64,000 bases of DNA from Oligoflexia bacterium (GTDB lineage: Bacteria > Bdellovibrionota_G > JANQFH01), in assembly GCA_028277945.1 (NCBI GenBank), contig JANQFH010000008.1, positions 195,442 to 259,441 on the forward strand. Direction: 5' to 3'. Of this stretch, positions 5,728-47,379 are shown piece after piece (positions within the stretch are counted from its first letter, which is position 1; each line of letters opens with the position of its first letter). Made by a program: the position numbers and the translations under genes. The notes below the pieces were generated by a model. That model saw only the letters and a program-made list of their open reading frames with translations. It ran no database searches and was not told the DNA's origin.

Positions 5728-5736
5728 TCTCCAAAC

Positions 5737-6675
5737 TCAAGAGATAGGGTGAAGCGCTGCATGTCGTGGTTGGCAAGCATAGCCCAGGCCCTGGGCACGC
5801 TTTTTGTTAATTTGAATCTCGTTCTCGGAAAAGAAGAGCTCTTGTAAACCATTGGAGAACGCCTGGCAGACAACTACGGAAAAAAATGGCAAGAGCTTTT
5901 GTTTGGTAAAGACAAATTCAACATGGATACGGCTTTTTCGCAGGCTATTCTCCAGCTCTCTAAGCGAGTGGTTTGGAAGGCTGGATTCATCAAGTTTCTT
6001 AATGTCATAGTCGGCTGGCGAAAAAGGCGGTATTTCTGTACTGCATACGGTCGGCACGACAAAGGGGAGAATATGCCAGAGGTTGCCACGGATATCTGTG
6101 GGTGGAGGGACATTGCGTGAGTCATAGAGGAGCAGAGCCTCTTTTAGTGCTTTATCCTTGGCTCTGGCCAGATCAAACGCCGCACCAAAACCGTAGCAAC
6201 GTTGTTTCTCAGCAGAAGCAATCTCAGTCATGACCACATGAATGGGAAGATCATGGGTGAGATAGAAGAGGCGAACGTTTTTGTCTTGGTTATGATCGAT
6301 TTCCCATAATACTTTGTTATAGAAGACGGATAGCAGAGCTTGATCGCGCTCAGCCAGTTCGATTAGCGCTGCTTGTCTTGCCTCATTACGGTTGAAGTGG
6401 CAACTCAGGCCGTTGGTGGTTGGCTTGACAGGTTTTGCGTAATAGTGATGTCGCTCCACACACTCCATCAGTGCCGTCAGTTGTGCCTGATAGGGATCTA
6501 AGGCGACACCCACGCCAGCTACCCGATCGTCTCGTCCCTGGGCGTAGACACGGTGCCAGGTGAGGTTGTTAAAGCGAATCTCTTTGTGGGCGAGCGTTTT
6601 GACGATTCCCTGCTGCTGTTTAAGAGTACCCGCAATAACGAGGTTAAGTCGAGCTCTCTGCAGCAGTTGTCCCAT
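5737..6675 (-). CDS. minimal YcaO-domain protein (cassette A)
   Basis: Two ExxER motifs in YcaO-like contexts: LTALMECVERH and TNGLSCHFNRNEARQAALIELAERDQALL. Paralog of 13582-14607. It is only 312 aa with no fused partner domain. Confidence 0.6.
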   Translation of the reverse strand: MGQLLQRARLNLVIAGTLKQQQGIVKTLAHKEIRFNNLTWHRVYAQGRDDRVAGVGVALDPYQAQLTALMECVERHHYYAKPVKPTTNGLSCHFNRNEARQAALIELAERDQALLSVFYNKVLWEIDHNQDKNVRLFYLTHDLPIHVVMTEIASAEKQRCYGFGAAFDLARAKDKALKEALLLYDSRNVPPPTDIRGNLWHILPFVVPTVCSTEIPPFSPADYDIKKLDESSLPNHSLRELENSLRKSRIHVEFVFTKQKLLPFFSVVVCQAFSNGLQELFFSENEIQINKKRAQGLGYACQPRHAALHPIS

Positions 6676-6688
6676 GGCCTACAGTGAG

Positions 6689-8248
6689 TCATGGAGTTGC
6701 CGGCAGAGCAGTTCTTGCCAGCCTCATATCCGCGAAATTGATGTTAAACTCCCACTCTGGCATGTGAGATAGATCGATTTTGGAGGAGGCATAAAAGGGT
6801 GTGGCCAGAAAATAGTAGGGAATAACAAAGCCCTCTTCTAGCATATAGCGGCTGATCTCTCTTGCCATTTGGATACGCTCTTTGGTGTTTCCTGTGGACC
6901 TGGTTGCTTCAATCATCTTATAGAGCCTGCCATCGTTAGGATCACGCACATAAAAGTCATCTGGACCAAAGTCTAGACGAAACACCAAACAAGGGTCTCC
7001 TGGTGGTATGGGTATAATACGGGACCCAAGATCAAAGCCTTGTCCCTGCAATCGGGCTTGTTTCATGGAACTACGAGATAGGGGGGTCATCTCAATTTGA
7101 AATCCATACGCTGAGAGATCATTGATTAATAATAGATCTCTCTTTGTTCTCTTATTCCAAACGTCTGGGTACATATATCTCAACGTCAAAGGCTCCTCTC
7201 TCAACCTGGCATAGATTGCTGTAAACTCTTTGGTCGCAGGTAGTGGGGCTTCAATGCGGCCACTAAAGCCGGGGGGAAAGAACTGATCAGAAGGAGCGTA
7301 AAGAAGTGAGTTACCGAATCTCTTGTGTTGGTGCTCTATGAGAGCTGCAGCAAAGGCAAGCCGTAGGGTTTTGTCCTTAAGGGGGCCTGTAATCGCATTG
7401 ACATAAACAATACGGCTCCAGTTACGTTTTGGTATAAACTGCTGAAAACGCTTTACCCTCTCTTGATCCTCTCGTTCTACTAGTCTATTGCGCTTATCTA
7501 AGAAGATGTCTGTTGTGCCTGCTAAAAGACGCTCCACAGCCTCCAAATCGTCACGCTCATAAACAATAACCGTCTGTGCTCTCTCGCCCCGTGGCTCAAA
7601 CCACTGCTCATGCCACTGCAACTTCACATAGTCCTTACGTTTCCACTCCACAAACTTGTAGGGTCCGCCTAACACAGGAAGCTTTTCTTTATGATAAGGC
7701 TCGTTCTCTGGATAGATCTTCCTCGGTACAACACCAGTACCTGGCATGGCTAGAATAAAGAGAAAGTACTCATAGGGGTTCGATAGGTTAAACTCCAAAG
7801 TGTGTTTGTCGATCATACGAATGGCTTTAGAATCTTTCTTTGGATCGACCCAATCAAAGAGCACGTACTCGGGCCAGTTAGTCTGTTTTCTCTTTAAGGA
7901 GAAGATAACATCTTCAACAGTGATAGGTGAGCCATCGTGAAAGAAGGCATCTTTTCTGATGGTGATCTCATAGCGTCTGCCACCATCATAAGAGCGCCAG
8001 CTCTGAGCTAACATGCCTATCAATGATTGGTCTTCGGCAATAGCAAAGAGGGTGATGGAGGTGCTGTTCAACATATACCAACCGCTGTTGGTCATATTTG
8101 CAGCTGGATCAAGAAAAGCTGGAAAATGATCCAGGTCCAACTTGATTGTGGAGCGGTCATCGCTTTGCAGCTGAGGCAGAGAACTGGCAAAACAGACAGC
8201 CGAAAGGAGTCCTAGGATGCCGACGGCTTTAAAAATCAATCTTTTCAA
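6689..8248 (-). CDS. periplasmic solute-binding protein, family 5 (OppA/DppA-like) (cassette A)
   Basis: Signal peptide GILGLLSAVCFASS. Family-5 signature region LAQSWRSYDGGRRYEITIRKDAFFHDGSPITVEDVIFSLKR. Length is about 520 aa. Confidence 0.85.
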   Translation of the reverse strand: MKRLIFKAVGILGLLSAVCFASSLPQLQSDDRSTIKLDLDHFPAFLDPAANMTNSGWYMLNSTSITLFAIAEDQSLIGMLAQSWRSYDGGRRYEITIRKDAFFHDGSPITVEDVIFSLKRKQTNWPEYVLFDWVDPKKDSKAIRMIDKHTLEFNLSNPYEYFLFILAMPGTGVVPRKIYPENEPYHKEKLPVLGGPYKFVEWKRKDYVKLQWHEQWFEPRGERAQTVIVYERDDLEAVERLLAGTTDIFLDKRNRLVEREDQERVKRFQQFIPKRNWSRIVYVNAITGPLKDKTLRLAFAAALIEHQHKRFGNSLLYAPSDQFFPPGFSGRIEAPLPATKEFTAIYARLREEPLTLRYMYPDVWNKRTKRDLLLINDLSAYGFQIEMTPLSRSSMKQARLQGQGFDLGSRIIPIPPGDPCLVFRLDFGPDDFYVRDPNDGRLYKMIEATRSTGNTKERIQMAREISRYMLEEGFVIPYYFLATPFYASSKIDLSHMPEWEFNINFADMRLARTALPATP

Positions 8249-8458
8249 GTTGTGTACTTCTAACTTAGGTTTTAGTGTTCTCTCTAATAATATGAAGAAC
8301 TTCTGTCAACGGGTACTTTTCATCAGCAACTCAACCAACACAAATGTGTTTCATTTTTAGACAAGTTGTTTCGTAAGACGACACTTAAATGATGGTTCAA
8401 TCTAGCTTCGAGAGCTTGACCCTGTCTATAAAATAAGCAATCATCCTGGGTTAAGAGT

Positions 8459-9716: not shown

Positions 9717-10907
9717 ATGTCTCATCCAAAACCAGAGTCTCCAGCGCTTATGGAGCCGATGCTTCCGGCTGCAGGACAATCCTCGCAACTCGAGGATCTT
9801 GCTGTTGATCTCATTGCCAAGGGCAGTAGCTTTCACAGCCTTTTGCCCACGAACCTACAGACAGGCATTGCGGATCTGGTGCGCTCGATGAACTGCTATT
9901 ACAGCAATCTCATCGAAGATCATCACACCCACCCCCGCGACATTGATCGCGCTCTAGCAGATGATTTCTCTACTGAACCAAAAAAGAGAGCCTTACAATT
10001 GGAAGCCAAAGCGCACATTGAAGTACAACGCCTCATGGATCATGGAGGCATCCCCGCCAATCCAACGACGTCTACATTTATTACCTGGATCCACCGGAAG
10101 TTTTGTGAGCGTTTGCCCGACAATCTTCTATGGACTGAAAACCCTGACAGTGGAGAACGTCTTCGCATCCACGCAGGCAAGCTCAGACAAACTAATGTCA
10201 TAGTTGGTCGCCACCTTGCGCCTGAGGCAAAAAATCTCCACGCTTTTCTGGCTCGCTTTCAAGAGGCCTATGATCTACAGCGCCTTTCCAAAGTGCAACA
10301 GATCCTCGCAGTCGCTGCGTCACATCATCGGTTACTGTGGATCCACCCTTTTCTCGACGGCAACGGTAGGGTGGCACGTCTCTTCTCGCATGCGCTCTTG
10401 TTGCATCTGGGTATTGGCAGTTCCCTTTGGTCAGTATCACGCGGTCTAGCCCGTAGCGTCGACGACTATAAAAGCATGCTCATGCAGGCAGATCAGCTGC
10501 GCCGCAATGACCATGATGGTCGTGGTACGCTCTCCCAACAAGGGCTGATGGATTTTTGTGGCTTTTTCTTGGCCACATGTCTTGATCAAATTGAGTTCAT
10601 GCGCTCTCTGTTAGAACCTAAAGAGCTTCTAAATCGTGTTGCTGTTTATACCGAAGAAGAGATGCGTGCCAAGAGACTTCCAAAAGGGAGTCTGGCGCTA
10701 TTGCGACATGCCATACTGGTTGGCGAGATTGCGCGCCATGAGCTCTCTGGCATTACGGGTTACAAAGAACGTCAGGCTCGTAATGTATTAAAAGAACTAT
10801 TAGCTAAAAAACTCCTTTACTCAGCAACTCCACGTGGCCGCGTGCGTCTGGGTTTTCCTATTGAGGTGGTAGAGCGCTGGTTCCCAACCCTCTACCCTGG
10901 AGTCTAA
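9717..10907 (+). CDS. Fic family protein (AMPylase-type)
   Basis: Canonical Fic motif HPFLDGNGRVARLFSHALL. About 400 aa with a C-terminal wHTH-like tail. No adjacent small antitoxin gene seen. Confidence 0.9.
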   Translation: MSHPKPESPALMEPMLPAAGQSSQLEDLAVDLIAKGSSFHSLLPTNLQTGIADLVRSMNCYYSNLIEDHHTHPRDIDRALADDFSTEPKKRALQLEAKAHIEVQRLMDHGGIPANPTTSTFITWIHRKFCERLPDNLLWTENPDSGERLRIHAGKLRQTNVIVGRHLAPEAKNLHAFLARFQEAYDLQRLSKVQQILAVAASHHRLLWIHPFLDGNGRVARLFSHALLLHLGIGSSLWSVSRGLARSVDDYKSMLMQADQLRRNDHDGRGTLSQQGLMDFCGFFLATCLDQIEFMRSLLEPKELLNRVAVYTEEEMRAKRLPKGSLALLRHAILVGEIARHELSGITGYKERQARNVLKELLAKKLLYSATPRGRVRLGFPIEVVERWFPTLYPGV

Positions 10908-12329: not shown

Positions 12330-12345
12330 TGGCACACAATTTGCT
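12330..12345 (+). promoter_or_regulatory. sigma-54 (-24/-12) type promoter upstream of short ORF 12393
   Basis: TGGCACacaatTTGCT. GG at 12331-12332 and GC at 12343-12344 are separated by 10 nt, matching TGGCAC-N5-TTGCW. It lies about 48 nt upstream of ATG 12393. Confidence 0.6.
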
Positions 12346-12392
12346 TTTTTTTAAGCCAGCCACGTCACCTTCAATTTGTTATGGGAGGAACT

Positions 12393-12515
12393 ATGAAGGA
12401 CGCAAAAAAGACAAAACGTCAACAGTCTAAGTCGTCAAAAAAAATCTTTTCCCCTATTAAGGACAAGCTGTTAGATACAGCTATGTCGACTATCACATAT
12501 GATGTAACTGGCTAA
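12393..12515 (+). CDS. candidate precursor/signal peptide, 40 aa (cassette D)
   Basis: MKDAKKTKRQQSKSSKKIFSPIKDKLLDTAMSTITYDVTG. RBS GGGAGG at 12383-12388, 4 nt before the ATG. A sigma-54-type promoter lies upstream. The HExxH gene starts 93 nt downstream on the same strand. Confidence 0.5.
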   Translation: MKDAKKTKRQQSKSSKKIFSPIKDKLLDTAMSTITYDVTG

Positions 12516-12608
12516 GTAGGCAACGAAAATAAGACAACGAAGCTAAGTATGGGAGTGGATGGTCTCTGCTCCCGTACCTTCAAGCCAGGCATATGAGAGA
12601 TCGATTTA

Positions 12609-13601
12609 ATGTGTTTAGAATATCATTCCGCCCCAGGAAAATTATCACCTTTTGTGCTTCGAAAAAATTTTCAAGGATATTTGGTTAAAAGCGCTATTTC
12701 CTACATTAATGAAGTTCAGTCGTCTTTAAAATTGGACCTCAACCACATAATATTAAAGTTATCCAGCCTAGATCAAAACCAGAAATTTTCCCCCTCTATC
12801 TATACAGGGTATCACATACTACAGTCAGCTTACGATAGTCAGAATAAAACCCTTGTGTTGGATGCCCTTCATTTCTTGGTTCAGTATTGCAATGATAAAG
12901 GTGGTAACAATAACATTGATTATTCAACTATACTTACAGAACCATATGAGAATCATTGTATAGACACTTTTCGAAAATCGAACCCTAAAGATGACTTCGG
13001 CGTGCCAGCTTTTGACGTTGTAGAAATGTTTCCAATACTGAATGTTAAAAAATATAAAATTCCTCCGTCTAGCCTTAAAAAGGCTGAAGAAATATTATCG
13101 CTGATTGATATGGATTTATGGAAAGAGTATCAAGCTTACGTTTCTATCTTAAAGATCTTCCAAGGAAAGAGTCTTCAAGGTGGAACAAGTCTCAACTGTT
13201 TTGGTACGGTATACCTGAGAATGCCTGAGGATTCCGAACATCCGGTACTCTACTTCCTGGAACATATTGTGCATGAAACCTCCCATTTGCATCTCTATGC
13301 ATTAGCCGGAGACAGAGACCTTGTTAGAAACGATTCAGCCTCTGTTTATGACTCGCCAATACGACACGACAAACGGCCCATTATTGGGGTATTTCACGCT
13401 ACGTTTGTTTTGGCTCGCTTAGTCCGTATATTTCAGCGCTACCTAAATCATTTTAGCAATGACTATCCAGAAGGAACTACCTTCTACAACAGAATAAGCA
13501 GAGACTTCAAAACCGGATACTCTATATTGAAAGAAAATTGTCTTTTTACAACGCTTGGGCGACAAATTTTTGATTCGTTAGATGATTGTACGAAAATTTG
13601 A
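12609..13601 (+). CDS. HExxH-motif protein (RiPP-associated HEXXH-domain type; possible peptide hydroxylase or peptidase) (cassette D)
   Basis: HIVHETSHLHLY is followed by KRPIIGVFHATFVLAR. The same two blocks occur in paralog 26946-27779 (HELGHHYL .. KRPLFGIYHAAFAEA). Confidence 0.6.
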   Translation: MCLEYHSAPGKLSPFVLRKNFQGYLVKSAISYINEVQSSLKLDLNHIILKLSSLDQNQKFSPSIYTGYHILQSAYDSQNKTLVLDALHFLVQYCNDKGGNNNIDYSTILTEPYENHCIDTFRKSNPKDDFGVPAFDVVEMFPILNVKKYKIPPSSLKKAEEILSLIDMDLWKEYQAYVSILKIFQGKSLQGGTSLNCFGTVYLRMPEDSEHPVLYFLEHIVHETSHLHLYALAGDRDLVRNDSASVYDSPIRHDKRPIIGVFHATFVLARLVRIFQRYLNHFSNDYPEGTTFYNRISRDFKTGYSILKENCLFTTLGRQIFDSLDDCTKI

Positions 13602-14607
13602 AAGGAACGACCCTCTTGGAAATACCGCGTTTGGCAAACTACCTATCAAAAAACTGGTACGTGCTGCAGTCTTCCCTGATCGCTTTTTTGTAGGCAAAGC
13701 AGGTATCAAGCTTGTCAATTGGCAAGGAAATAATCAGTACCTTTGTGGCTTCTCATGCAGCAGACAACCGGCTATTGCCGAAAATGTAGCTGTTTTCGAA
13801 CTCTGTGAACGCTTGACAGCAAAGTATGAATTTCAATCTTTTCTGGGCACGAATATGAATACTTTCAGAGCGTTTACCTGGCCCGATGGGAATCCAGCTA
13901 GAGTGACAAAATCTCAATTATTCCTTGGTCCAAATCCATTTTCCCAATTTGGACAAGAGGCAACTGGCCTAGGTTTTGGCCCTGATTATCATCAAGCATT
14001 AAATCACGCTATTCTTGAATTGTTGGAGAGGCACATCTGCGCAGGTCTTTGGTATGAAGCAAAATATAGGCTATGCAAGGCAATCGACAGAGTATCTTTA
14101 GACTCCTTTGACATTTTCTACTATACCCTCCACAGACCGAAGATACCATTTGTTCTAGCCATTATATACTCGAATGAACTTGAGGTGCTTTCAGTCGGCC
14201 ATGCAATAAGATCTACGTTTGAGGAGGCGAAGGAAAAATCCTACTCCGAAGCAGTGATGCTGTTAGATTGTGTTCTCCACAAGGATAACGGTATCTGTAC
14301 CAATTTAAGAACTAAAAATCGTTTGCTTTCTCAAAGAGGTCCCTTAGCAAAAGAACGATTCCAACAATTTAACGATCTGACAGTAAACGTGGCAGCAGCA
14401 AAAAATATCCTAAGCCGATATTTTTCAATATCTGAGATTACTGCGGCGGTGCTTGGCACTAATGACGATATCGAAATTATTCAACTTTTCCGGGATAGAA
14501 ACTTCTGGTCTCTACGAGCACTTTCGAAGAAGGTGGCTACCTTGGCAGAACGTCGACAATCGAATCGATATTCAGAAAAACAAAAGATTCTGGACCCTTA
14601 TTGCTAA
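13582..14607 (+). CDS. minimal YcaO-domain protein (cassette D)
   Basis: ExxER motifs VAVFELCERL and ATGLGFGPDYHQALNHAILELLERH. Overlaps the HExxH gene by 20 nt. Paralog of 5737-6675. Confidence 0.6.
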   Translation: MIVRKFERNDPLGNTAFGKLPIKKLVRAAVFPDRFFVGKAGIKLVNWQGNNQYLCGFSCSRQPAIAENVAVFELCERLTAKYEFQSFLGTNMNTFRAFTWPDGNPARVTKSQLFLGPNPFSQFGQEATGLGFGPDYHQALNHAILELLERHICAGLWYEAKYRLCKAIDRVSLDSFDIFYYTLHRPKIPFVLAIIYSNELEVLSVGHAIRSTFEEAKEKSYSEAVMLLDCVLHKDNGICTNLRTKNRLLSQRGPLAKERFQQFNDLTVNVAAAKNILSRYFSISEITAAVLGTNDDIEIIQLFRDRNFWSLRALSKKVATLAERRQSNRYSEKQKILDPYC

Positions 14608-14619
14608 GATCAGCATACA

Positions 14620-15888
14620 TTAGAGCTTGTCGGAAATAAGGCTATATCTTTTGGCCGTGCTCCACAACAACAGTGTTGAAGCAAGCCCCACAATGCCAGA
14701 AAGACCAATTAACTTGCCTATGGCTGGATCGGCTTTCATAAGTACAGTGAAGATTACCATGGACAGTATATACCCGACTCTGCCATAAGCCTGTCCTTTC
14801 GATATTGAGTAGGTAAACCGATCTTGGCTAAATTGTGACTGAATCTTGTTTGAAAACATTATAAGGGAAACACCGTACAGGATACCGATAATGATCATTA
14901 GGGCAATAAAGGAGTCTCGAGAAGTTCCTCCAGCAAGAATTAGTGTTAGACTTAGAGCTACAAGAAGAAGAATCAATTTATGAATACTACGGAAGTACAC
15001 TTGAAATGCATTTGGGAAGAGAGTAATTGCGGTTAATGCTAGGAGGAATCCAAAGTAGATAGACGATGGACCTGAAAGTATTCGTGTAATTCCAGAAAGA
15101 TGTTTTGATGCTGCTAGCGATTGCATAAGAATAAAGGCAACCGCTCCAAAAGCTAAATTTGTCAAAAATAGAAACTGATTGTTCCATTTTAGCCAATGGT
15201 CGTCTTTTAAATCTATGATACGTTGATTTGCATTGTTCTGAAAAACATCAACCGATACTTGTTGCATACTGGTTATCTTTTTCATAAAGGATAGTAAAAG
15301 GAAGAGTCCAAGTAGAGAAATAAGGTAGGTTATGGAGTTTACGATGCAGACGACAGACCATCCACTAGTTAGCAGCAACGCTGCGACTGAAGCACTTACC
15401 ATGTTTACTCCACGATTTGCAGCATTCGAGAACGCTAAAGCTCTAGGTAGAGGGAAAAAATTATTCCTATCCAGGAAGATAGGAATAATGGTGGTCAGTT
15501 GTCTTGTTATAAGTGATAATGTACGCATTACTATCATCAGAGCGAGAAATAAGCCGTAAAATAGGTGCCTTGGAAGATATGATATTAAGATAGGCAGAAT
15601 GGTCAGTCCCATTAGGATAAATTCGATACATAGGGCGTAAAAAATTCTATCCTTGATATTTATAATGCGATCAATGTATTTTCCAAGAAAGGGTGCTAAA
15701 CCAATTTGCAGTATGGCATCTGTAGAGAACAGAATCCCCGATAACAATATTCCCGAACTATCGTCAAGAAAGAGTGCAACTGCGAAGAAAAGTAAAAGGC
15801 TATCCCCAAGTTTGGAAATAATCGATAAAGAAAGATACCCCCAAATAGGCGCCTTTGTCATGTTGTGGATTGGCTTTTCTCTATCCAT
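14620..15888 (-). CDS. MFS-type transporter (cassette D)
   Basis: About 12 predicted hydrophobic helices. Loop LGKYIDRIINIKDRI is in the MFS motif-A position. The start is uncertain (15888 or M10 at 15861). Confidence 0.7.
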   Translation of the reverse strand: MDREKPIHNMTKAPIWGYLSLSIISKLGDSLLLFFAVALFLDDSSGILLSGILFSTDAILQIGLAPFLGKYIDRIINIKDRIFYALCIEFILMGLTILPILISYLPRHLFYGLFLALMIVMRTLSLITRQLTTIIPIFLDRNNFFPLPRALAFSNAANRGVNMVSASVAALLLTSGWSVVCIVNSITYLISLLGLFLLLSFMKKITSMQQVSVDVFQNNANQRIIDLKDDHWLKWNNQFLFLTNLAFGAVAFILMQSLAASKHLSGITRILSGPSSIYFGFLLALTAITLFPNAFQVYFRSIHKLILLLVALSLTLILAGGTSRDSFIALMIIIGILYGVSLIMFSNKIQSQFSQDRFTYSISKGQAYGRVGYILSMVIFTVLMKADPAIGKLIGLSGIVGLASTLLLWSTAKRYSLISDKL

Positions 15889-15902: not shown

Positions 15903-16034
15903 AAGGCAAGAATTAGGCCAATAGGAATGTCCGGTATTCCAATGGGTTGTAGATAGGTAACGCTTAGGAACAGTATGTCTGATATAGGACGCTCTGTTCA
16001 CCCTGAAGACAGTTTGTTTGTATTGCGAACAATT
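15903..16034. repeat. about 130-nt conserved intergenic element, copy 1 (copy 2 at 28016..28146)
   Basis: Ungapped alignment by eye gives roughly 80% identity with 28016-28146. Best-conserved blocks are TTAGGCCAAT, GTCTGATATA and TGAAGACAGTTTGTTTGTATT.CGAACAAT. ORFs over the two copies lie on different strands, so the element is not coding. Confidence 0.7.
15905..15920 (-). promoter_or_regulatory. sigma-54-like -24/-12 motif inside repeat copy 1, facing MFS gene 14620..15888
   Basis: Minus strand TGGCCTaattcTTGCC. GG at 15919-15918 and GC at 15907-15906 are 10 nt apart. It is very close to ATG 15888, so the transcript would be nearly leaderless unless the start is M10. Confidence 0.35.
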
Positions 16035-16149
16035 GAGCCGTTGCCGGTCTGCCATCATGGAACCTCGCATCTGCCTTCAAGGTAAAGGTATACTCATCTC
16101 CTGCATCAGAGAGCAGCCCATTTTCTTGACCACAAACCAACGAACGCAT
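16033..16149 (-). pseudogene. 5' remnant of a family-5 solute-binding protein gene
   Basis: MRSLVCGQENGLLSDAGDEYTFTLKADARFHDGRPATAQ.. matches SSWKVSDAGDEYTFTLNSDARFHDGSPVTARD of 43334-44740. This includes a 31-nt identical run, gatgcaggagatgagtatacctttaccttga. Homology breaks at about 16034, where repeat copy 1 begins. Confidence 0.7.
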
Positions 16150-18395: not shown

Positions 18396-19142
18396 CTACT
18401 CTCCAAAACCCTTCACAAAAAACTTCTCATCGATCAACCGCAGACCCTCATAGACCTCATACTTGATCAAGGCACCCTTGGTATCGCGGTAGAGCCCTTT
18501 GCGCACTTGTCTTGGTTTTTTGTAAAGGCCCTCAACCTTGCTCAAAAAGGCTGCCAGTTCCTCTCTACTAAAAGGGCCATGCCGTTCCCAATCGAGCCAA
18601 TCAGGGCCAATGGAGACCACCACCGATAGCTCACGGCTGCCAGGTTTTACTCCACCAAAGAGCTTCTTTGCCATCCTCTGACTGCCAAGCGTCAGGAGGT
18701 GCCAGTTGCGGCTTTCAAAATGCTCTCGCTTGTTCTGCTGATCCATAAACATAAAATAGACGCCTTCGCTCCAGGAGCTACGATCCAGATTGACGCCTTT
18801 TTTGAAGCGCTCTAAAAATGTTTTTAAATCGGCAGGTTGATCATGCCAATGCCGTATGATCCTTTTGATAAAAGACCAGGTTGAGATGACAGACATGCCC
18901 TCCTCATCTTGCGACTGATCCAGAGAGTCGAGTTTTTCTAATTCATAACCTCTAAACAGTTCCGAACCTGTATCAGGCTCTGTTACCAGCAGCAGAGCAC
19001 CATCTTTAAGTTCCACAGTATCTCCAAACTCTATAGGTCTTTCGATATCCTCAGGAACTCCAGGGATATCAATCACTGTATCTCCCTGCTGTGCAAAGGG
19101 AGAGTCTGGATGGGGGGGTCGTTTTTCTCTCTCACGCATCAC
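18396..19142 (-). CDS. cytoplasmic protein, candidate immunity protein for the RES-domain toxin
   Basis: No signal peptide. Its start overlaps the toxin stop by 4 nt (19139-19142), the usual toxin-immunity coupling. No recognisable motif. Confidence 0.5.
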   Translation of the reverse strand: MMREREKRPPHPDSPFAQQGDTVIDIPGVPEDIERPIEFGDTVELKDGALLLVTEPDTGSELFRGYELEKLDSLDQSQDEEGMSVISTWSFIKRIIRHWHDQPADLKTFLERFKKGVNLDRSSWSEGVYFMFMDQQNKREHFESRNWHLLTLGSQRMAKKLFGGVKPGSRELSVVVSIGPDWLDWERHGPFSREELAAFLSKVEGLYKKPRQVRKGLYRDTKGALIKYEVYEGLRLIDEKFFVKGFGE

Positions 19143-20923
19143 TCTAGGGCCTCAAAAAGAACGACGTTAAAGCCATCTGGATTTCTTGCCGAGGGTACGA
19201 CAATACCACGATAGTGCAGCCGCGCCAATTCTCCTATTATTTGTGTTATTGAGTAATCCTCAGAGATCAAAGCTTCAGGAGCTATATTTAATAGCTCCCT
19301 GACACTTGGTTCATTAAGATCGAGCATGTTGTCGAGTGTGACATAGCGGCTTCTTGTTTCAATCACCCCCTTGACACCATGGGCTCGCATTTCCGCGGCG
19401 ATGGTCTGCCGATCGCCGCTCATGTAAAGCGCGCTTCTTCCCGGCGCTGAATAGCGATGGTTGGCGGCAATATTACCCTGCGGTATTTTCCACGAACCTG
19501 CTCGGTAAACATCACCTCTGTATTTACTTCCCTTGACAACACCTTGAACCAGCTTTTTGGTGGTATCAGGCCCCAAAGCTTGGCTCGCCCTTATCACCGC
19601 AGGCAGATGCTGCTGATCAAAGAGCTTTCTTGCCAAGCCACCACCACCGCGCCCTAGCAAACTGGTGGTCCCTCGGACCATGACCGTGCCTGACAGGACC
19701 ATAGGCACCATCATGGAGACAACTGTCTCTAAAGCCATCTCAAGCGGCAAGCTCGCCTCGACAACTCCAGTTGACGAATCCTCTTGTAGTGCCCACAAAT
19801 GGTAGTCTGCTGCCGCCATTTTGAGTGCTCCTGACAAGAACTCGCCGTCTCGGATATCTTGCACTCCCTCAATCATTAAATAGGCGGCATCTATAAGATG
19901 TGGCAGATCTGGCAGGGTTAAGGCATGATCGAGGGTAATCTCCACATGTTGCCAGATGTGTTGGGAGAGCCTCTCACCTAGATCGCGCTCTAACAGCGCC
20001 AACTCATCGAAGGTCTCAACACGGATGCGCGCCATGGAGCTGTCTGCTTCCAAATGGAGTCGACCTTTGGCCGTTGATTGAGCGCGTTCTGCTCGGTCAA
20101 TGAGTTCGTCTAATGTCTCCTGTATCCAGCGATGTCGTATGAGATCTCGCATGCTGCGAAGCTCGTGAACCCGCCGTGAGAATGCCGCGTAGCCATAGGC
20201 AACCACCTCCTTACTTGAAGCCCGTTCCACAGCCGCCAGGGCAACATCGGTGGAGGTGGCCGTGAGCCCCAGAAATAGTGGCAATCCATGTCTGTTTTCA
20301 GGAAGTGGCAACTGAGCTTGCTGTTGAAGTTGCACAAAAAGAGAGGAGTTGTGGATCATGTCACTAGCGGAACTGTGAGAAGCGAGATCGGAACCACCCC
20401 TTTCGTGGAGGGTGCGAATGTCGAGGCCGCTTGCAGATGATTCATCTCGAAGCTGATCATCTTGAGCTTGCTCTGCAGAGAGGCTTAGATGTTTGTTACT
20501 CTCTGCAACTGCAGTGTTGGCTTGAAGTAGGCTGAGGCCACGTTGCAACCCTGTAAGGTACTGAACTCTACGCCGAGCTTCCACATCACTGTGAGTCGGT
20601 GCTGAGCCTTCTTCATCCTCATCATCAAATCCACCGATCTCTCCTCTCGGGCTATCAAAGAAAGGGTCAAATCCTTCATCTTCTGTTTTGTCTTTGGGTT
20701 TTTGAGAGGAAACGATAACAATAGGCGTGTCAAAAACAATATGGACGTTGCCATCGGAGTCAACGGTCACATTTCCTGGCTCTGTGGTGTAGTCGTGCTC
20801 TCTTTCCTGAGCTGATTCAGTTTGTCCTGCATCATCTTGTGCAACAAGCTCTCTCTGCAACGGCGAAAAAAGACAAATCGTCGCGATCAATAAATAAAGC
20901 AGGCTTTTACATGAAATTTTCAT
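19139..20923 (-). CDS. Sec-signal polymorphic toxin with C-terminal RES domain
   Basis: Signal peptide LLYLLIATICLFSPL. The C-terminus NHRYSAPGRSALYMSGDRQTIAAEMRAH .. YRGIVVPSARNPDGFNVVLF fits the RES (Arg-Glu-Ser) pattern. Its overall build is similar to 52634-54766. Confidence 0.75.
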   Translation of the reverse strand: MKISCKSLLYLLIATICLFSPLQRELVAQDDAGQTESAQEREHDYTTEPGNVTVDSDGNVHIVFDTPIVIVSSQKPKDKTEDEGFDPFFDSPRGEIGGFDDEDEEGSAPTHSDVEARRRVQYLTGLQRGLSLLQANTAVAESNKHLSLSAEQAQDDQLRDESSASGLDIRTLHERGGSDLASHSSASDMIHNSSLFVQLQQQAQLPLPENRHGLPLFLGLTATSTDVALAAVERASSKEVVAYGYAAFSRRVHELRSMRDLIRHRWIQETLDELIDRAERAQSTAKGRLHLEADSSMARIRVETFDELALLERDLGERLSQHIWQHVEITLDHALTLPDLPHLIDAAYLMIEGVQDIRDGEFLSGALKMAAADYHLWALQEDSSTGVVEASLPLEMALETVVSMMVPMVLSGTVMVRGTTSLLGRGGGGLARKLFDQQHLPAVIRASQALGPDTTKKLVQGVVKGSKYRGDVYRAGSWKIPQGNIAANHRYSAPGRSALYMSGDRQTIAAEMRAHGVKGVIETRSRYVTLDNMLDLNEPSVRELLNIAPEALISEDYSITQIIGELARLHYRGIVVPSARNPDGFNVVLFEALE

Positions 20924-22077: not shown

Positions 22078-22313
22078 TTAATGCCATCGAGCTGAGAGTT
22101 CAACTTTTTAAACAAAGTTCGTACCTTCTGAAACAAACTAGCCACCACAAGAACTGCTGCCACGCGTTTCAAGAACGACCACTTTGTCCATATAAGAAAC
22201 AAACCGTTCACGATCAAATCAGTCGTCGAAAAGCCTTCTTGTTCTTGGTGATGGCTACCGGGACGGTTCTGTGCACCAGCCCATCCGGTCCAGACTTCAC
22301 CGCTCTAAACTCT

Positions 22314-24110
22314 CTAACTCTGAGGCCGCAGGCCAATTGGAACGAGGCTAGCGAGACTTTTAGGAATACATTTCACACCAAGTCGAGCACAATTCATGAG
22401 GACAACCTCCTCTTCAAAATGGCTTGTCACAAGTATAGCCTGATCTTGAAGGTTGAGCTCTTCAATGAGATCGAGCCCGGTTTCCTTAAAGTTGAGAAGT
22501 TCATAGTCACACAGAAATAAAGCATTGTGTGTATCATTCTTCTCAACCCATGTTCTTATGGCGTCGGGTGTAGACAGATTGTCAAGTTTGATCCTATTTC
22601 CTCCTCCGTTGCGTAATGCATGAAATCGCTCTCGCCAAATCTGATGAATCGTAGGATCGTCGTCCAAGGTTACAATGCGGGAGTCTGGCGCAACTTCAAG
22701 TCTGGGTACAAACCAAGACGGAGGACTTTCTTTGGGTAAAAGCAGAGATATCTGAGTACCTTGTCCTTCCGTACTCTCAATTTTAAGCTCACCTCCCCAG
22801 CTTTCAGCGGCCACTTTTGCATGATAGACTCCAAGACCTAGACCACTATCCGTTCCCCCCTTTCCATAGGTCACTCCCTTTTGGCCCAGTTTTCCGAGAA
22901 TGTCCGGTGGTATTCCTGTCCCGTCGTCTTTTACATAGAGACACAATGTTGAATTATTATGTTGGAACAGGCCAATTTCGATGACACCCTCATCGGTCAT
23001 TGCTTCAACAGAGTTATTTACAAGATTTGAAATTACACGCTTAAGCTCAACAGCACTGACTTTGGCAAACAGTCCGTAGGATTTTTCATCCAATTTGGCC
23101 TCAATTCGGATTCCTGTTTTAGTTCGGAATTGACCCCGTTTTTCGCTGACGATACTTTCTATAATACTTGATATCAACCAAGTCCTTCTCATGGCTTGAT
23201 TGGGCCTCTCGTCATGTTGAGCCTGATGTATATTTCTGCCCAGCAAGTTGTTGGCGATATCTTTAATACGTTGGGACGCATTACGTATAAGAACGCGTTT
23301 CTCTTCCGGAATGTCTACAAGAGTGCCAGCCAAAAGATCCAATGCTGCTACAGGAGCTCGTATATCATGCGCGATTTGTTGAGCCACTTGGTAAACAGCT
23401 TCCGCCTTTTTTGTTTCGATCCTATATTGATTTGACTGAAGAGTTTGTTGCGCAAGTTTCCTAATGGAAGAGGTGAGAATAACAACTTCGGACAGATCAC
23501 CCTTGATATTTGGCTGATCAAGGAGTGAAAGATCTTCTAAGTTGCCACTTTCAGCTGTTTGACTAAGCGTGTGTAGCGGTGCTGAGATCCGATGTGCCAC
23601 TCTTTTTAGCATAAGGAAAGCTATAGCAGCGATAGTCATTAAGACAAATAGAGATACTCCCATAATCCGGTAGTATAGACCACGAATGATTCCGGTATTA
23701 AACCTCATACTAACCATAGCCGCTGGTTGTGTCTTTTCGTCGTCAAAATATACAGTGCGTTCAACGACAAATTTACTCGTCCTCGACACTTCTGCAGTTT
23801 CTGGTAAACTCTCGTAAATAACTTCTCCTCTTATGTTCGAAATAATAATGTTATCTATGGCCTCTTTTTTTATCAAGAGATTGCACTTTTCACGGATGCT
23901 GAGGTGAGAGCCGGTAAGAATTTCGTAGCGAATATTCTCGGAAAAGAGTTCTAAAATCATCTCATGTTTTGACGCAACTAAGTTATCGAAACTCTTGTTA
24001 ACCGCAAATAGAATTAGGATTCCCACAAGAATTAAACCCAATGATACTGTTATTGAAAAAGTTCTGAGTAAACTGGTGAATACAGTATGTTGACGTTTAG
24101 GCATTTCCAC
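22314..24110 (-). CDS. hybrid sensor histidine kinase (cassette B)
   Basis: Two TM segments. H-box IAHDIRAPVAAL. N-box NLVNNSVEAM. G-boxes DDGTGIP and GTDSGLGLG. C-terminal receiver-like domain (IVTLDDD .. LFLCDYEL .. ILVTSH .. IPK). Confidence 0.85.
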   Translation of the reverse strand: MEMPKRQHTVFTSLLRTFSITVSLGLILVGILILFAVNKSFDNLVASKHEMILELFSENIRYEILTGSHLSIREKCNLLIKKEAIDNIIISNIRGEVIYESLPETAEVSRTSKFVVERTVYFDDEKTQPAAMVSMRFNTGIIRGLYYRIMGVSLFVLMTIAAIAFLMLKRVAHRISAPLHTLSQTAESGNLEDLSLLDQPNIKGDLSEVVILTSSIRKLAQQTLQSNQYRIETKKAEAVYQVAQQIAHDIRAPVAALDLLAGTLVDIPEEKRVLIRNASQRIKDIANNLLGRNIHQAQHDERPNQAMRRTWLISSIIESIVSEKRGQFRTKTGIRIEAKLDEKSYGLFAKVSAVELKRVISNLVNNSVEAMTDEGVIEIGLFQHNNSTLCLYVKDDGTGIPPDILGKLGQKGVTYGKGGTDSGLGLGVYHAKVAAESWGGELKIESTEGQGTQISLLLPKESPPSWFVPRLEVAPDSRIVTLDDDPTIHQIWRERFHALRNGGGNRIKLDNLSTPDAIRTWVEKNDTHNALFLCDYELLNFKETGLDLIEELNLQDQAILVTSHFEEEVVLMNCARLGVKCIPKSLASLVPIGLRPQS

Positions 24111-25611
24111 CTAATCCTTTTCGGTGCAATTTCCATAATTCATGAAAAAATGTCTCTCCAAATTTTGGCATGTCTATTTGCTTTTTTAAGAGAATAGGAT
24201 AGTCAAAGGCCAGAATAGGGACAAAAAAATGTCTGCTTTCAAAATCTACCAGCTCTCTCTCGTACAGTTTTAGGCGTCGCAAGCGTTTTTTAGTAAACCG
24301 GATTGCCGAAATCCTATCCAAGAATTCTTTAACGGGAAATAATCTTTCAACGCCAAATAGCTTGCTCTGTAGAGGCCACAGGTAGCCATCTGGATCAGTT
24401 AGGCCTGCACCAAAAATAAAAGAGATCAGATCGAAATCCCCTGTCTTGTAGTAATTCAATAGCAGGGCCAAATCGACGATTCGAATATCCGGAACTAACC
24501 CTAGTCGTTCTAAAAGGGAGGAAACGCTATTGATGTGTTGCTGAGACATAAAACCTTTGTATACAACGACTCGAAATTTGTGGCCCTCAAGTTTCGGATA
24601 TTTTGTGACAAAGTTATCTTCAGTGATTTGGCTTTTTCTTGGTCCATAATAAGACATCGGAAGAGTACCCTCGGGAAGGAAGGTATGAAGAGATTTCTGG
24701 AAAGGCACTAGATTTTTCTTGATGGTGGATAGTGATGAAATAAGATAGCTTAAGTCGCGTCGTAGATTAGAGGACTTTAGATGGGCTCTATGTGTGTTAT
24801 ATAGGAAATGTAACACAAACACATTGTTGGGAAGAACCACATCAAAGCTGCTGCTATCAAGTTTGATTTTCGCAAGTTCATATGGGGCCACACCCAAAAA
24901 AACATCGAATTTGTTGGCCTCTATCAAGGTTCTTAAATCACTATAATCGTATCCTTCAACCACAAGTTTATAAATATTTTCGGAGGAAGTTCTTGGTTCA
25001 AAGCTCCAAGTTTTTCCTTTATTTGTTAGACTTGCAGTCATTAAACCGGAGCCGGTACAACAAAACGATTCTTTTTCGACAATGCCAAAAAGAGGATTGT
25101 TAAGAAGCTTTAGAAAAGGAGGATAGGGCCCCTTGAGATAAAATCTAATGTGTTGTTCGTCTATTGCCTCGACAGCATTGGTGCCTGCTTTGGTCTTGGG
25201 TTGCAGGGCAAGCTCCAAAATCGATCGTGAAGAAAAGTTTGATTCTAAAATTCTGAGAAATGAGTGCTCAACATCTTTGGCAGTGATTTTTCTTCCATTA
25301 TGAAAGCGTAGGTTAGGTTTTAGCTTAAAAGTGTATTCTCTGCCACTATCGTTTATGCTCCAACTTTCGGCTAGTTCAGACACAACAATACCTCTCTCAT
25401 TCAGGCGGACTAGACGCGAAAATACACAGGCGCTCATCATAAGGTGCGATACCGATACTATTTTCATTGGATCTAGAGTTTGTGGGAGAATGCTCACACC
25501 AATCTTTAGTTCATTGTAATTCGTCAGGTCTTTTGCCAGCAAATCAGTACTCAAAAAGCATATTAAGAATAGCACGGAGAAAATATTGAATTGTTTAGCA
25601 CTCTTTTTCAT
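24097..25611 (-). CDS. periplasmic solute-binding protein, family 5 (cassette B)
   Basis: Start taken at MKKSAKQFNIFSVLFLICFLSTDLLA (signal peptide), 6 nt after the MFS stop. Signature region LAESWSINDSGREYTFKLKPNLRFHNGRKITAKDVEHSF. The 3' end overlaps the HK start by 14 nt. Confidence 0.85.
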   Translation of the reverse strand: MKKSAKQFNIFSVLFLICFLSTDLLAKDLTNYNELKIGVSILPQTLDPMKIVSVSHLMMSACVFSRLVRLNERGIVVSELAESWSINDSGREYTFKLKPNLRFHNGRKITAKDVEHSFLRILESNFSSRSILELALQPKTKAGTNAVEAIDEQHIRFYLKGPYPPFLKLLNNPLFGIVEKESFCCTGSGLMTASLTNKGKTWSFEPRTSSENIYKLVVEGYDYSDLRTLIEANKFDVFLGVAPYELAKIKLDSSSFDVVLPNNVFVLHFLYNTHRAHLKSSNLRRDLSYLISSLSTIKKNLVPFQKSLHTFLPEGTLPMSYYGPRKSQITEDNFVTKYPKLEGHKFRVVVYKGFMSQQHINSVSSLLERLGLVPDIRIVDLALLLNYYKTGDFDLISFIFGAGLTDPDGYLWPLQSKLFGVERLFPVKEFLDRISAIRFTKKRLRRLKLYERELVDFESRHFFVPILAFDYPILLKKQIDMPKFGETFFHELWKLHRKGLGGNA

Positions 25612-25616
25612 TTGTG

Positions 25617-26933
25617 TTATGATCCTGACCGCACAGAGCTCTTTCGTTTTTGTTCGGATAATAAATAGACAGAAAAAATAGAAACAACACAGATGATACA
25701 CACTGTAATCATGGCCTCTTCAACAGAAGGAGCTCCATCTCTACATTTGCCTAGGTACCAGCTGTAGAAGCCGATACCTGCAAAAGCAGGCATATTCTGT
25801 AAACTTAGAGCTGTTGCCAATTCCTCATTGTCTACTACGGAGCATAGAAGGTTAGTTGCTAATGCGCCTGTGGCTCCGACCACAACATCAGCCATAACGG
25901 CGTATACTAAGATCATGAGGATTAGCATCGTAGGGTTTAGTGAGCTGAATGTACATAAAATATACAGACTGATTGTAGCAAGAAGAGTAAAGTGAATTAA
26001 GAGGTAATTATTTGTACTTAATCTTTTGCTCATCACTAGCCTTGGTAGTACATGTCCTCTTACAATCCATCCTATTCCACCATAAGCAAAGGTAAAGAGT
26101 CCCATGATAAACCACGAGAATAGGCCGTGGTCCGCATTTCCAAACTGTCTACCCAGAGTGATCGCAAAGTAGCCCGCGTTTACTGCAGCTAACATAAAGG
26201 CTGATAGCCGTAAATAAATCGCCTTTTTGGCGACCATACTTTGCCGTAACCTGCTGATTAGATTCGATGTGCTTGGTCTCCCCCCACTTATTGAAGTATC
26301 ACCATAAATACGAAAGTCCCTGAAAAGACGATAGAATCCTGCATACCATAGCAAAATACCGATGATCAGTGTGTGATGCACTCCAATGGTGTGATAGGTA
26401 ACAAAAAGTAAGACAAAAGCCAGCAGGATAACCAAGGCTGTGAGATATTTCCCGGCATGTTGGCTGAGAGTAAAACTTTGGCTGGCCATTTTCTCTGCTT
26501 CGTTATGTCCTTTTGATAACCTACGGATAGCATCCTGGTAGAAAGCCTCCACAGATCCTGAAATCAATGGCTTTGAAAATCCAACAATGACGCCATGTAT
26601 GATAAAAAGAAGCCGAGAAAAGGTGTTCGGCATGCTCGGGAAAAGGGCCACATAGATGCCACAGGTTCCAAGGAGAATAAGAAAACCGCCCAATAGTGCG
26701 CAAGGAATTCTACCAAAACGATCCGCAACGTATCCCATTGGAACTTCAAAAATCACATTCATCAGAAACTCAATGCCCGTAAGCAGAGCAACTGTATCAA
26801 GCGGTACGTTAGCCAGCACACCAGCAGTAATACGGAAAGTGATCGAAATGAAATGAGTTGATGCGAGGTTGAGAGCTCTAAATATACCTAAACTTTTAAC
26901 ACATGCTTGAGTTTGTGCGAGGGTTTGATCCAT
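25617..26933 (-). CDS. MFS transporter (cassette B)
   Basis: MFS motif A-like GYVADRFGRIPCALLGG. About 12 hydrophobic helices. Confidence 0.8.
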   Translation of the reverse strand: MDQTLAQTQACVKSLGIFRALNLASTHFISITFRITAGVLANVPLDTVALLTGIEFLMNVIFEVPMGYVADRFGRIPCALLGGFLILLGTCGIYVALFPSMPNTFSRLLFIIHGVIVGFSKPLISGSVEAFYQDAIRRLSKGHNEAEKMASQSFTLSQHAGKYLTALVILLAFVLLFVTYHTIGVHHTLIIGILLWYAGFYRLFRDFRIYGDTSISGGRPSTSNLISRLRQSMVAKKAIYLRLSAFMLAAVNAGYFAITLGRQFGNADHGLFSWFIMGLFTFAYGGIGWIVRGHVLPRLVMSKRLSTNNYLLIHFTLLATISLYILCTFSSLNPTMLILMILVYAVMADVVVGATGALATNLLCSVVDNEELATALSLQNMPAFAGIGFYSWYLGKCRDGAPSVEEAMITVCIICVVSIFSVYLLSEQKRKSSVRSGS

Positions 26934-26945: not shown

Positions 26946-27779
26946 TTACACTTCTATTCTCTCTCTGACACCTAGCATAAACAACTTAATGTCCTTATCG
27001 AATTCCAGAAGACCAGATTTTGTAATAGTAGTAAGATCCTTTATATACTTGTTCTTATAACAATCTAAAATACGACTGGAACTCTGCTTGATTAACTCTT
27101 CTATCGAGTGATTCGAATGTATCCGCAAACCAAGTTCCAGCATGGCCGCCTCAGCAAAGGCTGCATGATAGATACCGAACAGTGGCCTTTTCATGTTTCT
27201 CAAAGCTGATCGGTCTTCTTTTGCCCATGGATAGCGATTCACTGTGGCTTCACTTTTTGTTGCAAAGACAATAGTAAGGTAGTGATGGCCCAACTCGTGA
27301 GCTAGAATTTCTGCCCACTTCACAGGGTCATCACTATTCATTACATATTCAATAAGTCCAAAGACTTGGGGATCAGAGGCTGATTCGTGTTCAACACCTT
27401 GCCTGGGAAAACACATTCTTGGTTTGATAATTTGCTCAAATGCAAATAGTTTCTTCCATACTACTCCGATAATTGTTCTTGCTGCAGAGTATAGTGCTTC
27501 TTTTTCTGGATAGCGTTGCAGTGAAGAATCAAAAATAATGTTACTGCCAACTACGAACTTGCTACGTGCGATATCACGAGTTATTAGATTGCTAACTTGG
27601 TCAGTTGACAGACTAAACTTATCACGATTGAAATAGATCCAAGAGAGAGTTGATAAGCTCAATTCTCTATTAATGTCTATATTGCGGAATGCTGGTATGA
27701 GCTTAAGAGCTTGCATTCCCTGCTGTCTAAATTGACTAACGTATTTTTTTGTCAGATCAATTGAGAATATAGAAGGCAT
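26946..27779 (-). CDS. HExxH-motif protein (cassette B), paralog of 12609..13601
   Basis: ILAHELGHHYL, then KRPLFGIYHAAFAEAAM. Both blocks are shared with the cassette D protein. Confidence 0.6.
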   Translation of the reverse strand: MPSIFSIDLTKKYVSQFRQQGMQALKLIPAFRNIDINRELSLSTLSWIYFNRDKFSLSTDQVSNLITRDIARSKFVVGSNIIFDSSLQRYPEKEALYSAARTIIGVVWKKLFAFEQIIKPRMCFPRQGVEHESASDPQVFGLIEYVMNSDDPVKWAEILAHELGHHYLTIVFATKSEATVNRYPWAKEDRSALRNMKRPLFGIYHAAFAEAAMLELGLRIHSNHSIEELIKQSSSRILDCYKNKYIKDLTTITKSGLLEFDKDIKLFMLGVRERIEV

Positions 27780-27817: not shown

Positions 27818-27922
27818 CTACGACCCGGTAGGTATGCTAGCTAACTTAGCACCTAGCACACGGTGTGATTGAAAAGAGAAATTGAAGGAAACTGTCTTTT
27901 TACTTTCGTTGCTTTTTGCCAT
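27818..27922 (-). CDS. candidate precursor/signal peptide, 34 aa (cassette B); not in ORF track
   Basis: Minus-strand ATG at 27922-27920. Translation checked codon by codon: MAKSNESKKTVSFNFSFQSHRVLGAKLASIPTGS*. RBS AGGAG at 27934-27930, 7 nt before the ATG. The stop is 38 nt upstream of the HExxH start. Confidence 0.5.
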   Translation of the reverse strand: MAKSNESKKTVSFNFSFQSHRVLGAKLASIPTGS

Positions 27923-28015
27923 TTTCTAGCTCCTGGTTACAGATGGTTTGTAACTTGTTTGTAATTTTGTCAGTTACACATTATCTGGAATCGATAGCAA
28001 TTAATACCTTTTCAA

Positions 28016-28146
28016 AAGCAAGAGTTAGGCCAATGGGAATATCCAATATTTCAATACGTTGTAAATATATGATACTCGGAGACAGTGTGTCTGATATAAG
28101 ACATTCTGTTCACTATGAAGACAGTTTGTTTGTATTTCGAACAATA
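28016..28146. repeat. about 130-nt conserved intergenic element, copy 2
   Basis: See copy 1 (15903-16034). It lies upstream (minus-strand sense) of the cassette B operon. Confidence 0.7.
28017..28032 (-). promoter_or_regulatory. sigma-54-like -24/-12 motif inside repeat copy 2, facing cassette B operon
   Basis: Minus strand TGGCCTaactcTTGCT. GG at 28031-28030 and GC at 28019-18 are 10 nt apart. The -12 element is about 95 nt upstream of the short-ORF ATG at 27922. Confidence 0.5.
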
Positions 28147-41050: not shown

Positions 41051-41116
41051 ATTCCTATTGAAGTAGTTGGGCATAAATTACGTTAGTGGTTTTAACAAAT
41101 ACTAGTTAAGGTCTTG

Positions 41117-43131: not shown

Positions 43132-43254
43132 TGGTCTGACATATCTTGGTTGTCACCCTACAAACTACACATAGATTGTGTCAAAATTGAACAGTTTGTT
43201 TGAAATGGAGACAGTAACAAACCAAGTAAAAACTAACTGATTTTATGCCTGTGT

Positions 43255-47352: not shown

Positions 47353-47379
47353 TAATGTTGCAGTTTATAGGAAGAAAGT

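Follow-up and report, generated by a model that had tools for sequence, protein, structure and literature searches.

The 64-kb stretch analysed here (hereafter the window, in whose positions all coordinates are given) belongs to contig JANQFH010000008.1 of the Oligoflexia bacterium assembly GCA_028277945.1. It carries an island of gene cassettes for solute-binding proteins (SBPs), histidine kinases, transporters and peptide-modifying enzymes, within which a 131-nt element is present twice (Table 1). The two copies align without gaps and are identical at 105 of 131 positions (80.2%; self-BLASTN, E = 5e-29), which bears out the two-copy repeat noticed in a first-pass annotation of this DNA, except that copy 2, placed there at 28016-28146, was measured one base away, at 28015-28145. 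Identity amounts to 87% in the block holding a promoter-like motif (promoter block), 67% in the adjoining spacer and 86% in the upstream block, and drops to only 32-34%, the random level, in the 50 nt flanking both copies, so that the edges of the element are sharp. Nothing else is common to the two neighbourhoods by self-BLASTN. The 64-kb window yielded no third copy, whether the promoter and core blocks were searched with mismatches allowed or a two-copy nhmmer profile was run with the filters off; the next-best nhmmer match (E = 0.047) arose from the palindrome within the element, hit on the opposite strand.

Each copy immediately precedes genes encoded on the minus strand and reads in their direction. 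Copy 2 is located within a 550-nt divergent intergenic region; it lies 93-223 nt from the start of a 34-aa open reading frame (ORF), and the distance to the first gene annotated in the Logan assembly is 236-366 nt. The 34-aa ORF, for which no family match was found, is a putative and likely precursor peptide for the adjacent aKG-HExxH enzyme, and is followed on the same strand by the gene for that enzyme and then by genes for a major facilitator superfamily (MFS) transporter, an SBP and a histidine kinase. Copy 1 precedes a different MFS gene, arranged tail-to-tail with the neighbouring HExxH-YcaO operon, the product of which has no detectable similarity to the MFS protein of the copy 2 operon (E = 2.2). 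In the NCBI annotation, this gene starts 27 nt further in, at 15861, yielding a protein of 413 aa and a distance of 45 nt from the -12 motif. Paralogous proteins of the island are far more diverged than the two copies of the element (28% identity for the HExxH proteins and 42% for the SBPs), suggesting that the module either arose far more recently than the cassettes or is under far stronger constraint.

Table 1. Features of the duplicated element, its flanking genes and related motifs in the window.
Feature	Position	Strand	Remarks
131-nt module, copy 1 (predicted enhancer, spacer and -24/-12 promoter)	15903-16033	-	Ungapped, 80.2% identical to copy 2; nhmmer E 6e-44
Copy 2 of the 131-nt module	28015-28145	-	True intergenic region; the Logan assembly (same strain) has no gene call over copy 2
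Sigma-54-type -24/-12 element TGGCCTAATTCTTGC, copy 1	15906-15920	-	Matches TGGC-N7-TTGC; predicted start ~15894
Sigma-54-type -24/-12 element TGGCCTAACTCTTGC, copy 2	28018-28032	-	Matches TGGC-N7-TTGC; predicted start ~28006
Proximal dyad unit AGACATACTGTTC, copy 1	15968-15980	-	3' half-site weakened
Middle dyad unit GAACAGAGCGTCC, copy 1	15987-15999	-	3' half-site degenerate
Distal dyad unit AAACAAACTGTCT, copy 1	16007-16019	-	Same sequence as in copy 2
Proximal dyad unit AGACACACTGTCT, copy 2	28080-28092	-	Perfect palindrome AGACA-N3-TGTCT; centre ~-80
Middle dyad unit GAACAGAATGTCT, copy 2	28099-28111	-	Centre ~-99
Distal dyad unit AAACAAACTGTCT, copy 2	28119-28131	-	Centre ~-119
SBP_bac_5 gene remnant (residues ~55-81, 27 codons)	16035-16113	-	Abuts the distal end of copy 1
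MFS transporter gene behind copy 1	14620-15888	-	Pfam MFS_1; ATG at 15888
34-aa ORF MAKSNESKKTVSFNFSFQSHRVLGAKLASIPTGS	27818-27922	-	AGGAG ribosome-binding site; first gene after copy 2; not in gene calls
aKG-HExxH peptide hydroxylase gene, copy 2 operon	26946-27779	-	TIGR04267 above its cut-off
MFS gene, copy 2 operon	25617-26933	-	Pfam
SBP_bac_5 gene, copy 2 operon	24097-25701	-	Pfam
Histidine kinase gene, copy 2 operon	22314-24110	-	Pfam
Near-consensus sigma-54 motif TGGCACACAATTTGC	12330-12344	+	Directly before a 40-aa ORF, an aKG-HExxH gene and a YcaO gene
Sigma-54-like motif TGGCATTTTCTTTGC	57569-57555	-	17 nt before the ATG at 57538

Read on the minus strand, both copies end in TGGCCTAAYTCTTGC, with a -24/-12 spacing of the sigma-54 type: the last bases of the element, 5' to 3', are TGGCCTAA(T/C)TCTTGC, that is GG-N10-GC, the exact sigma-54 spacing. 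Around the GG and GC, 19 of the 21 positions of ATTGGCCTAAYTCTTGCYTTG are identical in the two copies, and the homology stops a few bases past the -12 TTGC. Setting the C of the GC at -12 gives the predicted transcription starts listed in Table 1 and places the motif of copy 2 96 nt before the 34-aa ORF. Across the window, the pattern TGGC-N7-TTGC occurs nine times against 2.6 expected, a number reached in none of 100 shuffles, and other cassettes carry clear TGGCAC/TGGCAT-N-TTGC motifs. Because of this enrichment, which includes the near-consensus motif at 12330, sigma-54-like promoters appear to be the rule for the cassettes of the island. Two of the motifs (15906-15920 and 57555-57569, both on the minus strand) lie 17-18 nt before an ATG (15888 and 57538, respectively), and the corresponding mRNAs would be almost leaderless if these start codons are real.

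The upstream 66 nt of the element contain, in each copy, three tandem 13-nt units of dyad symmetry (RRACA-N3-TGTCT), the starts of which are 20 and 19 bp apart and the centres of which are located at approximately -119, -99 and -80 from the predicted transcription start. Matches of this type number seven in the window, against ~0.5 expected by our estimate from base frequencies, and six of the seven fall within the two copies; the palindrome was also picked up by the nhmmer profile of the element, which matches its own opposite strand. The three phased dyads fall exactly where the first-pass annotation had put an enhancer, and the most conserved block (29 of 30 nt) is indeed situated where it had been placed, 85-114 nt upstream of the -24 GG. 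An additional TGTTC half-site, lacking its partner half, is found 19 bp further upstream, at the extreme edge of the homology; it may, speculatively, be what the breakpoint left of a fourth dyad unit. Between the dyads and the -24/-12 motif lies the spacer of 47 nt, which is the least conserved segment and contains 57-70% A+T.

Similar half-sites are scattered elsewhere in the window. Two AGACA/TGTCT half-sites precede the promoter-like motif at 12330 (0.22 expected), which is suggestive only. Single RRACR-N3-TGTYY units or ACAAAC repeats are present in other intergenic regions of cassettes and in the leader downstream of copy 2 (8359-8371, 22197-22209, 43189-43225 and 27945-27975); these may be related operator half-sites, and are likewise no more than statistically suggestive.

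At its distal end, copy 1 abuts a fragment of an SBP gene. The nucleotides at 16035-16108 are 84% identical to the reverse complement of 43501-43574, and, when translated, 16113-16033 aligns with the SBP gene product of 43334-44740 over residues 55-81 (78% identity and E = 9e-9 by tblastn); the 61-aa ORF holding the remnant, which runs from 16149 into the element, matches NikA-type SBP models. The end of the SBP homology and the start of the element coincide to within 1 nt, at the breakpoint that had been suspected at copy 1. The further claim that the element had replaced the body of the SBP gene over-read this junction. Residues 82-468 are indeed absent from the neighbourhood of copy 1, but most of the sequence ahead of residue 55 is missing as well, the remnant ORF beginning at the stop codon of an upstream 497-aa gene. 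With a remnant truncated on both sides and its closest relative 27 kb away, more than one rearrangement is needed. A single tandem duplication was considered as the origin of the junction and rejected, since the remnant is nearest to the SBP gene at 43334 (84% nucleotide identity) and not to that of the copy 2 operon, and the sequences after the -12 box are unrelated between the copies; at least two events are thus required. Both partners share a 4-nt microhomology, GGCT, at the distal junction, which fits illegitimate recombination, if weakly. Copy 1 is presumably the derived copy, with two weakened sites and gene debris alongside, and copy 2, which has three intact TGTCT half-sites in a normal setting, looks like the source.

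Traces of other rearrangements are visible in the same island. The 5' region of the SBP gene at 43334, together with its first four codons (MRS.), is duplicated (43254-43346 and 47260-47355, ~86% identity); the frame at 47345 dies after ~16 codons and represents a second truncated SBP start, a sign of frequent rearrangement. A direct repeat of 75 nt (40895-40969 and 44959-45033, 87% identity) joins the 3' end of the minus-strand ORF 44960-46414 to intergenic DNA located upstream of the MFS gene at 41114, and may be a gene remnant.

Taken together, the homology begins at a gene breakpoint and ends just past the -12 element, a pattern that fits the copying of a whole promoter. We consider it probable (roughly 0.6) that the element is a complete sigma-54-dependent enhancer-plus-promoter, a paralogous module copied by illegitimate recombination. 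In the mechanism that we propose, a response regulator of the NtrC family would assemble on the three sites at approximately -119, -99 and -80 after phosphorylation, probably by one of the SBP-coupled histidine kinases of the island, the gene content making such a kinase the probable partner of the activator. Three dimers on three dyads would form one hexamer, as for NorR at norVW, and the flexible A+T-rich spacer would allow looping, so that the activator could contact the sigma-54 holoenzyme and the promoter would open at the -24/-12 site (TGGCC-N6-CTTGC). Copy 2 would thereby switch on the peptide, the aKG-HExxH hydroxylase, the MFS exporter and the SBP/kinase sensor, a layout of auto-induction. 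Through copy 1, a further MFS transporter, unrelated to the first, would respond to that signal as well; the duplication would have involved no more than the promoter module, copied or retained through illegitimate recombination. If so, both gene sets would answer to one shared predicted activator, constituting a small regulon of the copy 2 peptide operon and the MFS gene at 14620-15888, and the motif RRACA-N3-TGTCT, in three units ~20 bp apart, would provide a handle for finding that activator. The pair would then be a clean natural case of a whole enhancer-dependent promoter, with all of its parts in 131 nt, reused before unrelated genes. Such reuse is tidy but ordinary, and involves no new kind of element or mechanism.

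An upstream activating sequence plus sigma-54 promoter moved by recombination had already been proposed in the first-pass annotation, and strand and position, the three phased dyads, the extent of the homology and the unrelated flanking genes all agree with that proposal; the sigma-54 and enhancer roles themselves are read from sequence, and several observations weigh against them. The -24 box is TGGCCT instead of the consensus TGGCAC (CAC to CCT), and, of the 12 positions of the extended consensus TGGCACG-N4-TTGCW, copy 1 matches only 8 and copy 2 only 9. When window ORFs with a length of 150 aa or more, including every ORF long enough for a bacterial enhancer-binding protein (bEBP), were scanned with Pfam, no Sigma54_activat domain, no rpoN and no other regulator gene was detected. 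The first ATG after copy 1 is only 18 nt past the -12 GC, which would make the MFS mRNA near-leaderless unless the start at 15861 is used. A one-mismatch match to the consensus of integration host factor (IHF), TATCATATATTTA, is present in the spacer of copy 2 only, and none with up to one mismatch was found in copy 1. With just two homologous copies, conservation of the motifs does not constitute independent evidence, and the collections searched contained no orthologous promoters, hence no phylogenetic footprint. Finally, although all of the conserved blocks named in the first-pass annotation are present, the blockiness of the conservation is weakly or marginally significant by permutation (p ~0.03-0.16, depending on the statistic used).

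Some of these observations would be accommodated if the element were a duplicated promoter of another kind, in which the tandem units bind a LytTR-, OmpR- or NarL-type regulator, a sigma-70 promoter lies in the spacer, and TGGCC...TTGC is part of a leader or operator. The units can also be read as direct repeats with a ~20-bp phase and the core ACAGTT/ACAGTG, which we take to resemble LytTR-type sites (AgrA/ComE consensus), and the spacer of copy 2 holds a weak -35/-10 pair, TTTACA-16-GATATT (9 of 12), aligned with TCTACA-16-GACATT in copy 1; the departure of the -24 box from the sigma-54 consensus and the lack of a bEBP gene in the Pfam scan point in the same direction. Nevertheless, the sigma-70 candidates are poor: a promoter scan reported none in copy 1, and each hexamer is substituted between the copies, whereas the GG/GC block is better conserved (19 of 21) and has the exact sigma-54 spacing. 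The end of the homology right past the -12 box suits the last element of a promoter and not a leader, the other cassettes have their clear TGGCAC/TGGCAT-N-TTGC motifs, and the Pfam scan found a gene for a LytTR or other regulator no more than one for a bEBP. We regard this explanation as unlikely, and rate still lower the possibility that the repeat is a functionless leftover, intergenic DNA carried along by the rearrangements of the island and not yet decayed, in which the motifs of copy 1 are inert. The debris in the island (the SBP remnant at 16035-16113, the truncated SBP start at 47345 and the other short repeats), the two degraded units of copy 1 and the marginal blockiness are what such a history would leave behind. 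However, copy 1 occupies the exact position and orientation of a promoter for an intact MFS gene (413-422 aa) that has no other obvious promoter, and its -24/-12 block and distal unit have been fully kept while the spacer fell to 67%.

Three further explanations are much less probable. The sharp boundaries, the unrelated flanks and the broken genes adjoining the element are reminiscent of a small non-autonomous mobile element, similar to a miniature inverted-repeat transposable element, or of a generic repeat that happens to contain promoter-like motifs, and a small mobile element was one of the alternatives entertained in the first-pass annotation. This alternative finds little room, as neither copy has terminal inverted repeats or a flanking target-site duplication, no transposase domain was found in the Pfam scans, and the 64 kb contain no more than two copies, which are 80% identical; moreover, plasmids, phages, viral contigs, GTDB representative genomes and JGI metagenomes yielded no match, and the Logan assembly of the same strain is unbroken across copy 2. 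We thus judge it very improbable. The other alternative entertained there, a small RNA, or else a cis-acting RNA leader, is fractionally less probable still and fared no better: no Rfam family reaches its gathering threshold anywhere in the window, and at E <=10 the surroundings of the copies give only a chance narK match (18.6 bits, E = 0.41, cut-off 43.2). The predicted folds are no more stable than those of shuffled sequences (z-scores of +0.56, -1.10, -0.82 and -0.95 for two strands of two copies), and scans revealed no bracketing promoter or terminator common to both copies. A conserved imperfect hairpin, GAACAG...CTGTYC, does exist, but the single substitution in its stem breaks a pair in copy 1 without compensation; and a genuine sigma-54 promoter would leave the element itself upstream of the start, outside the transcript made from it. 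An equally slim chance attaches to the upstream half encoding a short cysteine-containing peptide (LF-A/E-IQTNCL..EQ.VLYQT.C), such as another precursor peptide. On the strand of the operon, neither copy interrupts this frame, which corresponds to a 51-aa ORF (28180-28025) in copy 2 and is fused to the SBP remnant in copy 1; GGA stands 7 nt before the ATG at 28180, the peptide would have two Cys residues, and a YcaO gene is in the neighbourhood. Yet the changes have no coding signature, with one of ~8 changed codons synonymous and two of ~10 base changes at third positions, and amino-acid identity is alike in every frame because the nucleotide identity is 86%. The ends also differ, copy 1 reaching a stop after ...YCS and copy 2 continuing for 17 more residues into the -24 box, so that no frame can be read across both copies to a common end. 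Neither Pfam nor NCBIfam gave a match to this peptide, and no gene is called there in the Logan assembly.

In its logic alone, the predicted enhancer-promoter module recalls the auto-induced peptide operons of Firmicutes, agr P2/P3 and com/blp, which have sigma-70 promoters and LytTR regulators and repeats. There, as would be the case here, phased repeats drive genes for a small peptide, its maturation, its export and a sensor kinase, and an additional gene is recruited through a duplicate of the promoter; unlike those systems, the Oligoflexia module has a -24/-12 motif, and the sensor would be an SBP_bac_5 protein together with a kinase. Promoters of the NtrC/glnAp2 type are similar in that the predicted sites lie 80-120 bp upstream, the A+T-rich spacer is less constrained and the input likely comes from a histidine kinase, but differ in the -24 box, TGGCCT here, and in the IHF-like site, which only one of our copies has. 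NorR recognizes GT-N7-AC, in contrast to the RRACA-N3-TGTCT of the sites predicted here; the gene content is also unrelated, and no NorR-like protein was identified in the window. The likeness to the NorR-dependent norVW promoter of E. coli, which combines three enhancer sites with one sigma-54 promoter (PMC2831303), resides in the three dyad-symmetric sites upstream of a -24/-12 element, a number that suits three dimers, that is one bEBP hexamer (PMC2831303).

As a repeat, the pair fits the published class of putative mobile promoter doublets by identity, length and non-homologous neighbours. These instances of "promoter propagation" were defined as sequences of >50 nt with >=80% identity and non-homologous neighbours (Matus-Garcia, Nijveen and van Passel 2012; PMC3488235), and families of two copies were ascribed to homologous or non-homologous recombination and not to transposition (PMC3488235). 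Our pair would be such a two-member family, 131 nt long at 80.2% identity, with non-homologous genes both upstream and downstream, although the published doublets averaged ~92% identity, compared with 80% here, and although copy 1 lies within about 150 nt of the translation start, copy 2, at 93-223 nt, extends outside the search frame of 50-150 nt used in that study (PMC3488235). Unlike the published cases, the module described here can be dissected into a predicted sigma-54 core promoter and three predicted activator sites.

Beyond the window, a 19-nt core of the element gave 21 matches, all in unrelated Bacteroidota or other loci and with background identity in the flanks, in GTDB representative genomes, among which the source genome is evidently not included, and a gapped pattern of dyad plus promoter gave one chance match in JGI metagenomes, inside a high-GC ORF; viral contigs, plasmids and phages had no match to the element. 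In word-seeded searches against 5.8 billion proteins, the HExxH and MFS proteins returned only themselves, and the SBP returned itself and two SBPs at 27% identity, the contig of one of which (L024) carries a DUF4135-SBP-kinase cassette without a sigma-54 motif or the element. The only other contigs with these genes, L001 and L025 of Logan, both from one run (SRR20820740), are 100% identical to the window and represent the same strain. This assembly is continuous through copy 2; its break falls inside the SBP remnant (window positions 16079-16105) and spares the 131-nt element. Sampling of this lineage in current databases is essentially nil, and close relatives are lacking.

The surroundings of the two copies consist of an array of paralogous cassettes for sensing and modifying peptides, in which no response regulator was found by the Pfam scan. 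Four SBP_bac_5 genes are located within 3907-8248, 22314-25701, 35658-39042 and 43334-44740, three of them immediately followed by a gene for a HisKA/HATPase kinase of ~600 aa, and the SBP cassettes are linked, in varying combinations, to genes of the YcaO, DUF4135 (lanthionine-synthetase-like), HExxH and MFS types. We entertain only tentatively the broader view that the island is a hypervariable array of peptide-signal cassettes, built from a small ORF, a HExxH/YcaO maturase, an MFS exporter and an SBP-coupled kinase, in which self-contained sigma-54 enhancer-promoter modules are shuffled as units and circuits are routinely rewired; were this the case, a copied module of 131 nt would be sufficient to bring an exporter from elsewhere under an auto-induction circuit already in place.

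Several other genes of the window deserve mention. The motif at 12330-12344 heads what looks like an operon for a peptide of the RiPP type (made by ribosomes and modified after translation), comprising a 40-aa Lys/Ser-rich ORF (12393-12515) with the ribosome-binding site GGGAGGA, an aKG-HExxH peptide hydroxylase (12609-13601) and a YcaO protein (13582-14607); this operon (12330-14607) converges on the MFS gene behind copy 1. A minus-strand gene at 19139-20923 encodes a 594-aa protein with a C-terminal RES (toxin-type) domain and a weak match to MbnB/TglH/MNIO-like proteins, an unusual fusion. Toxin genes of the Fic/DOC and HipA types (9717-10907 and 50651-51907) flank the array, which fits a variable accessory island.

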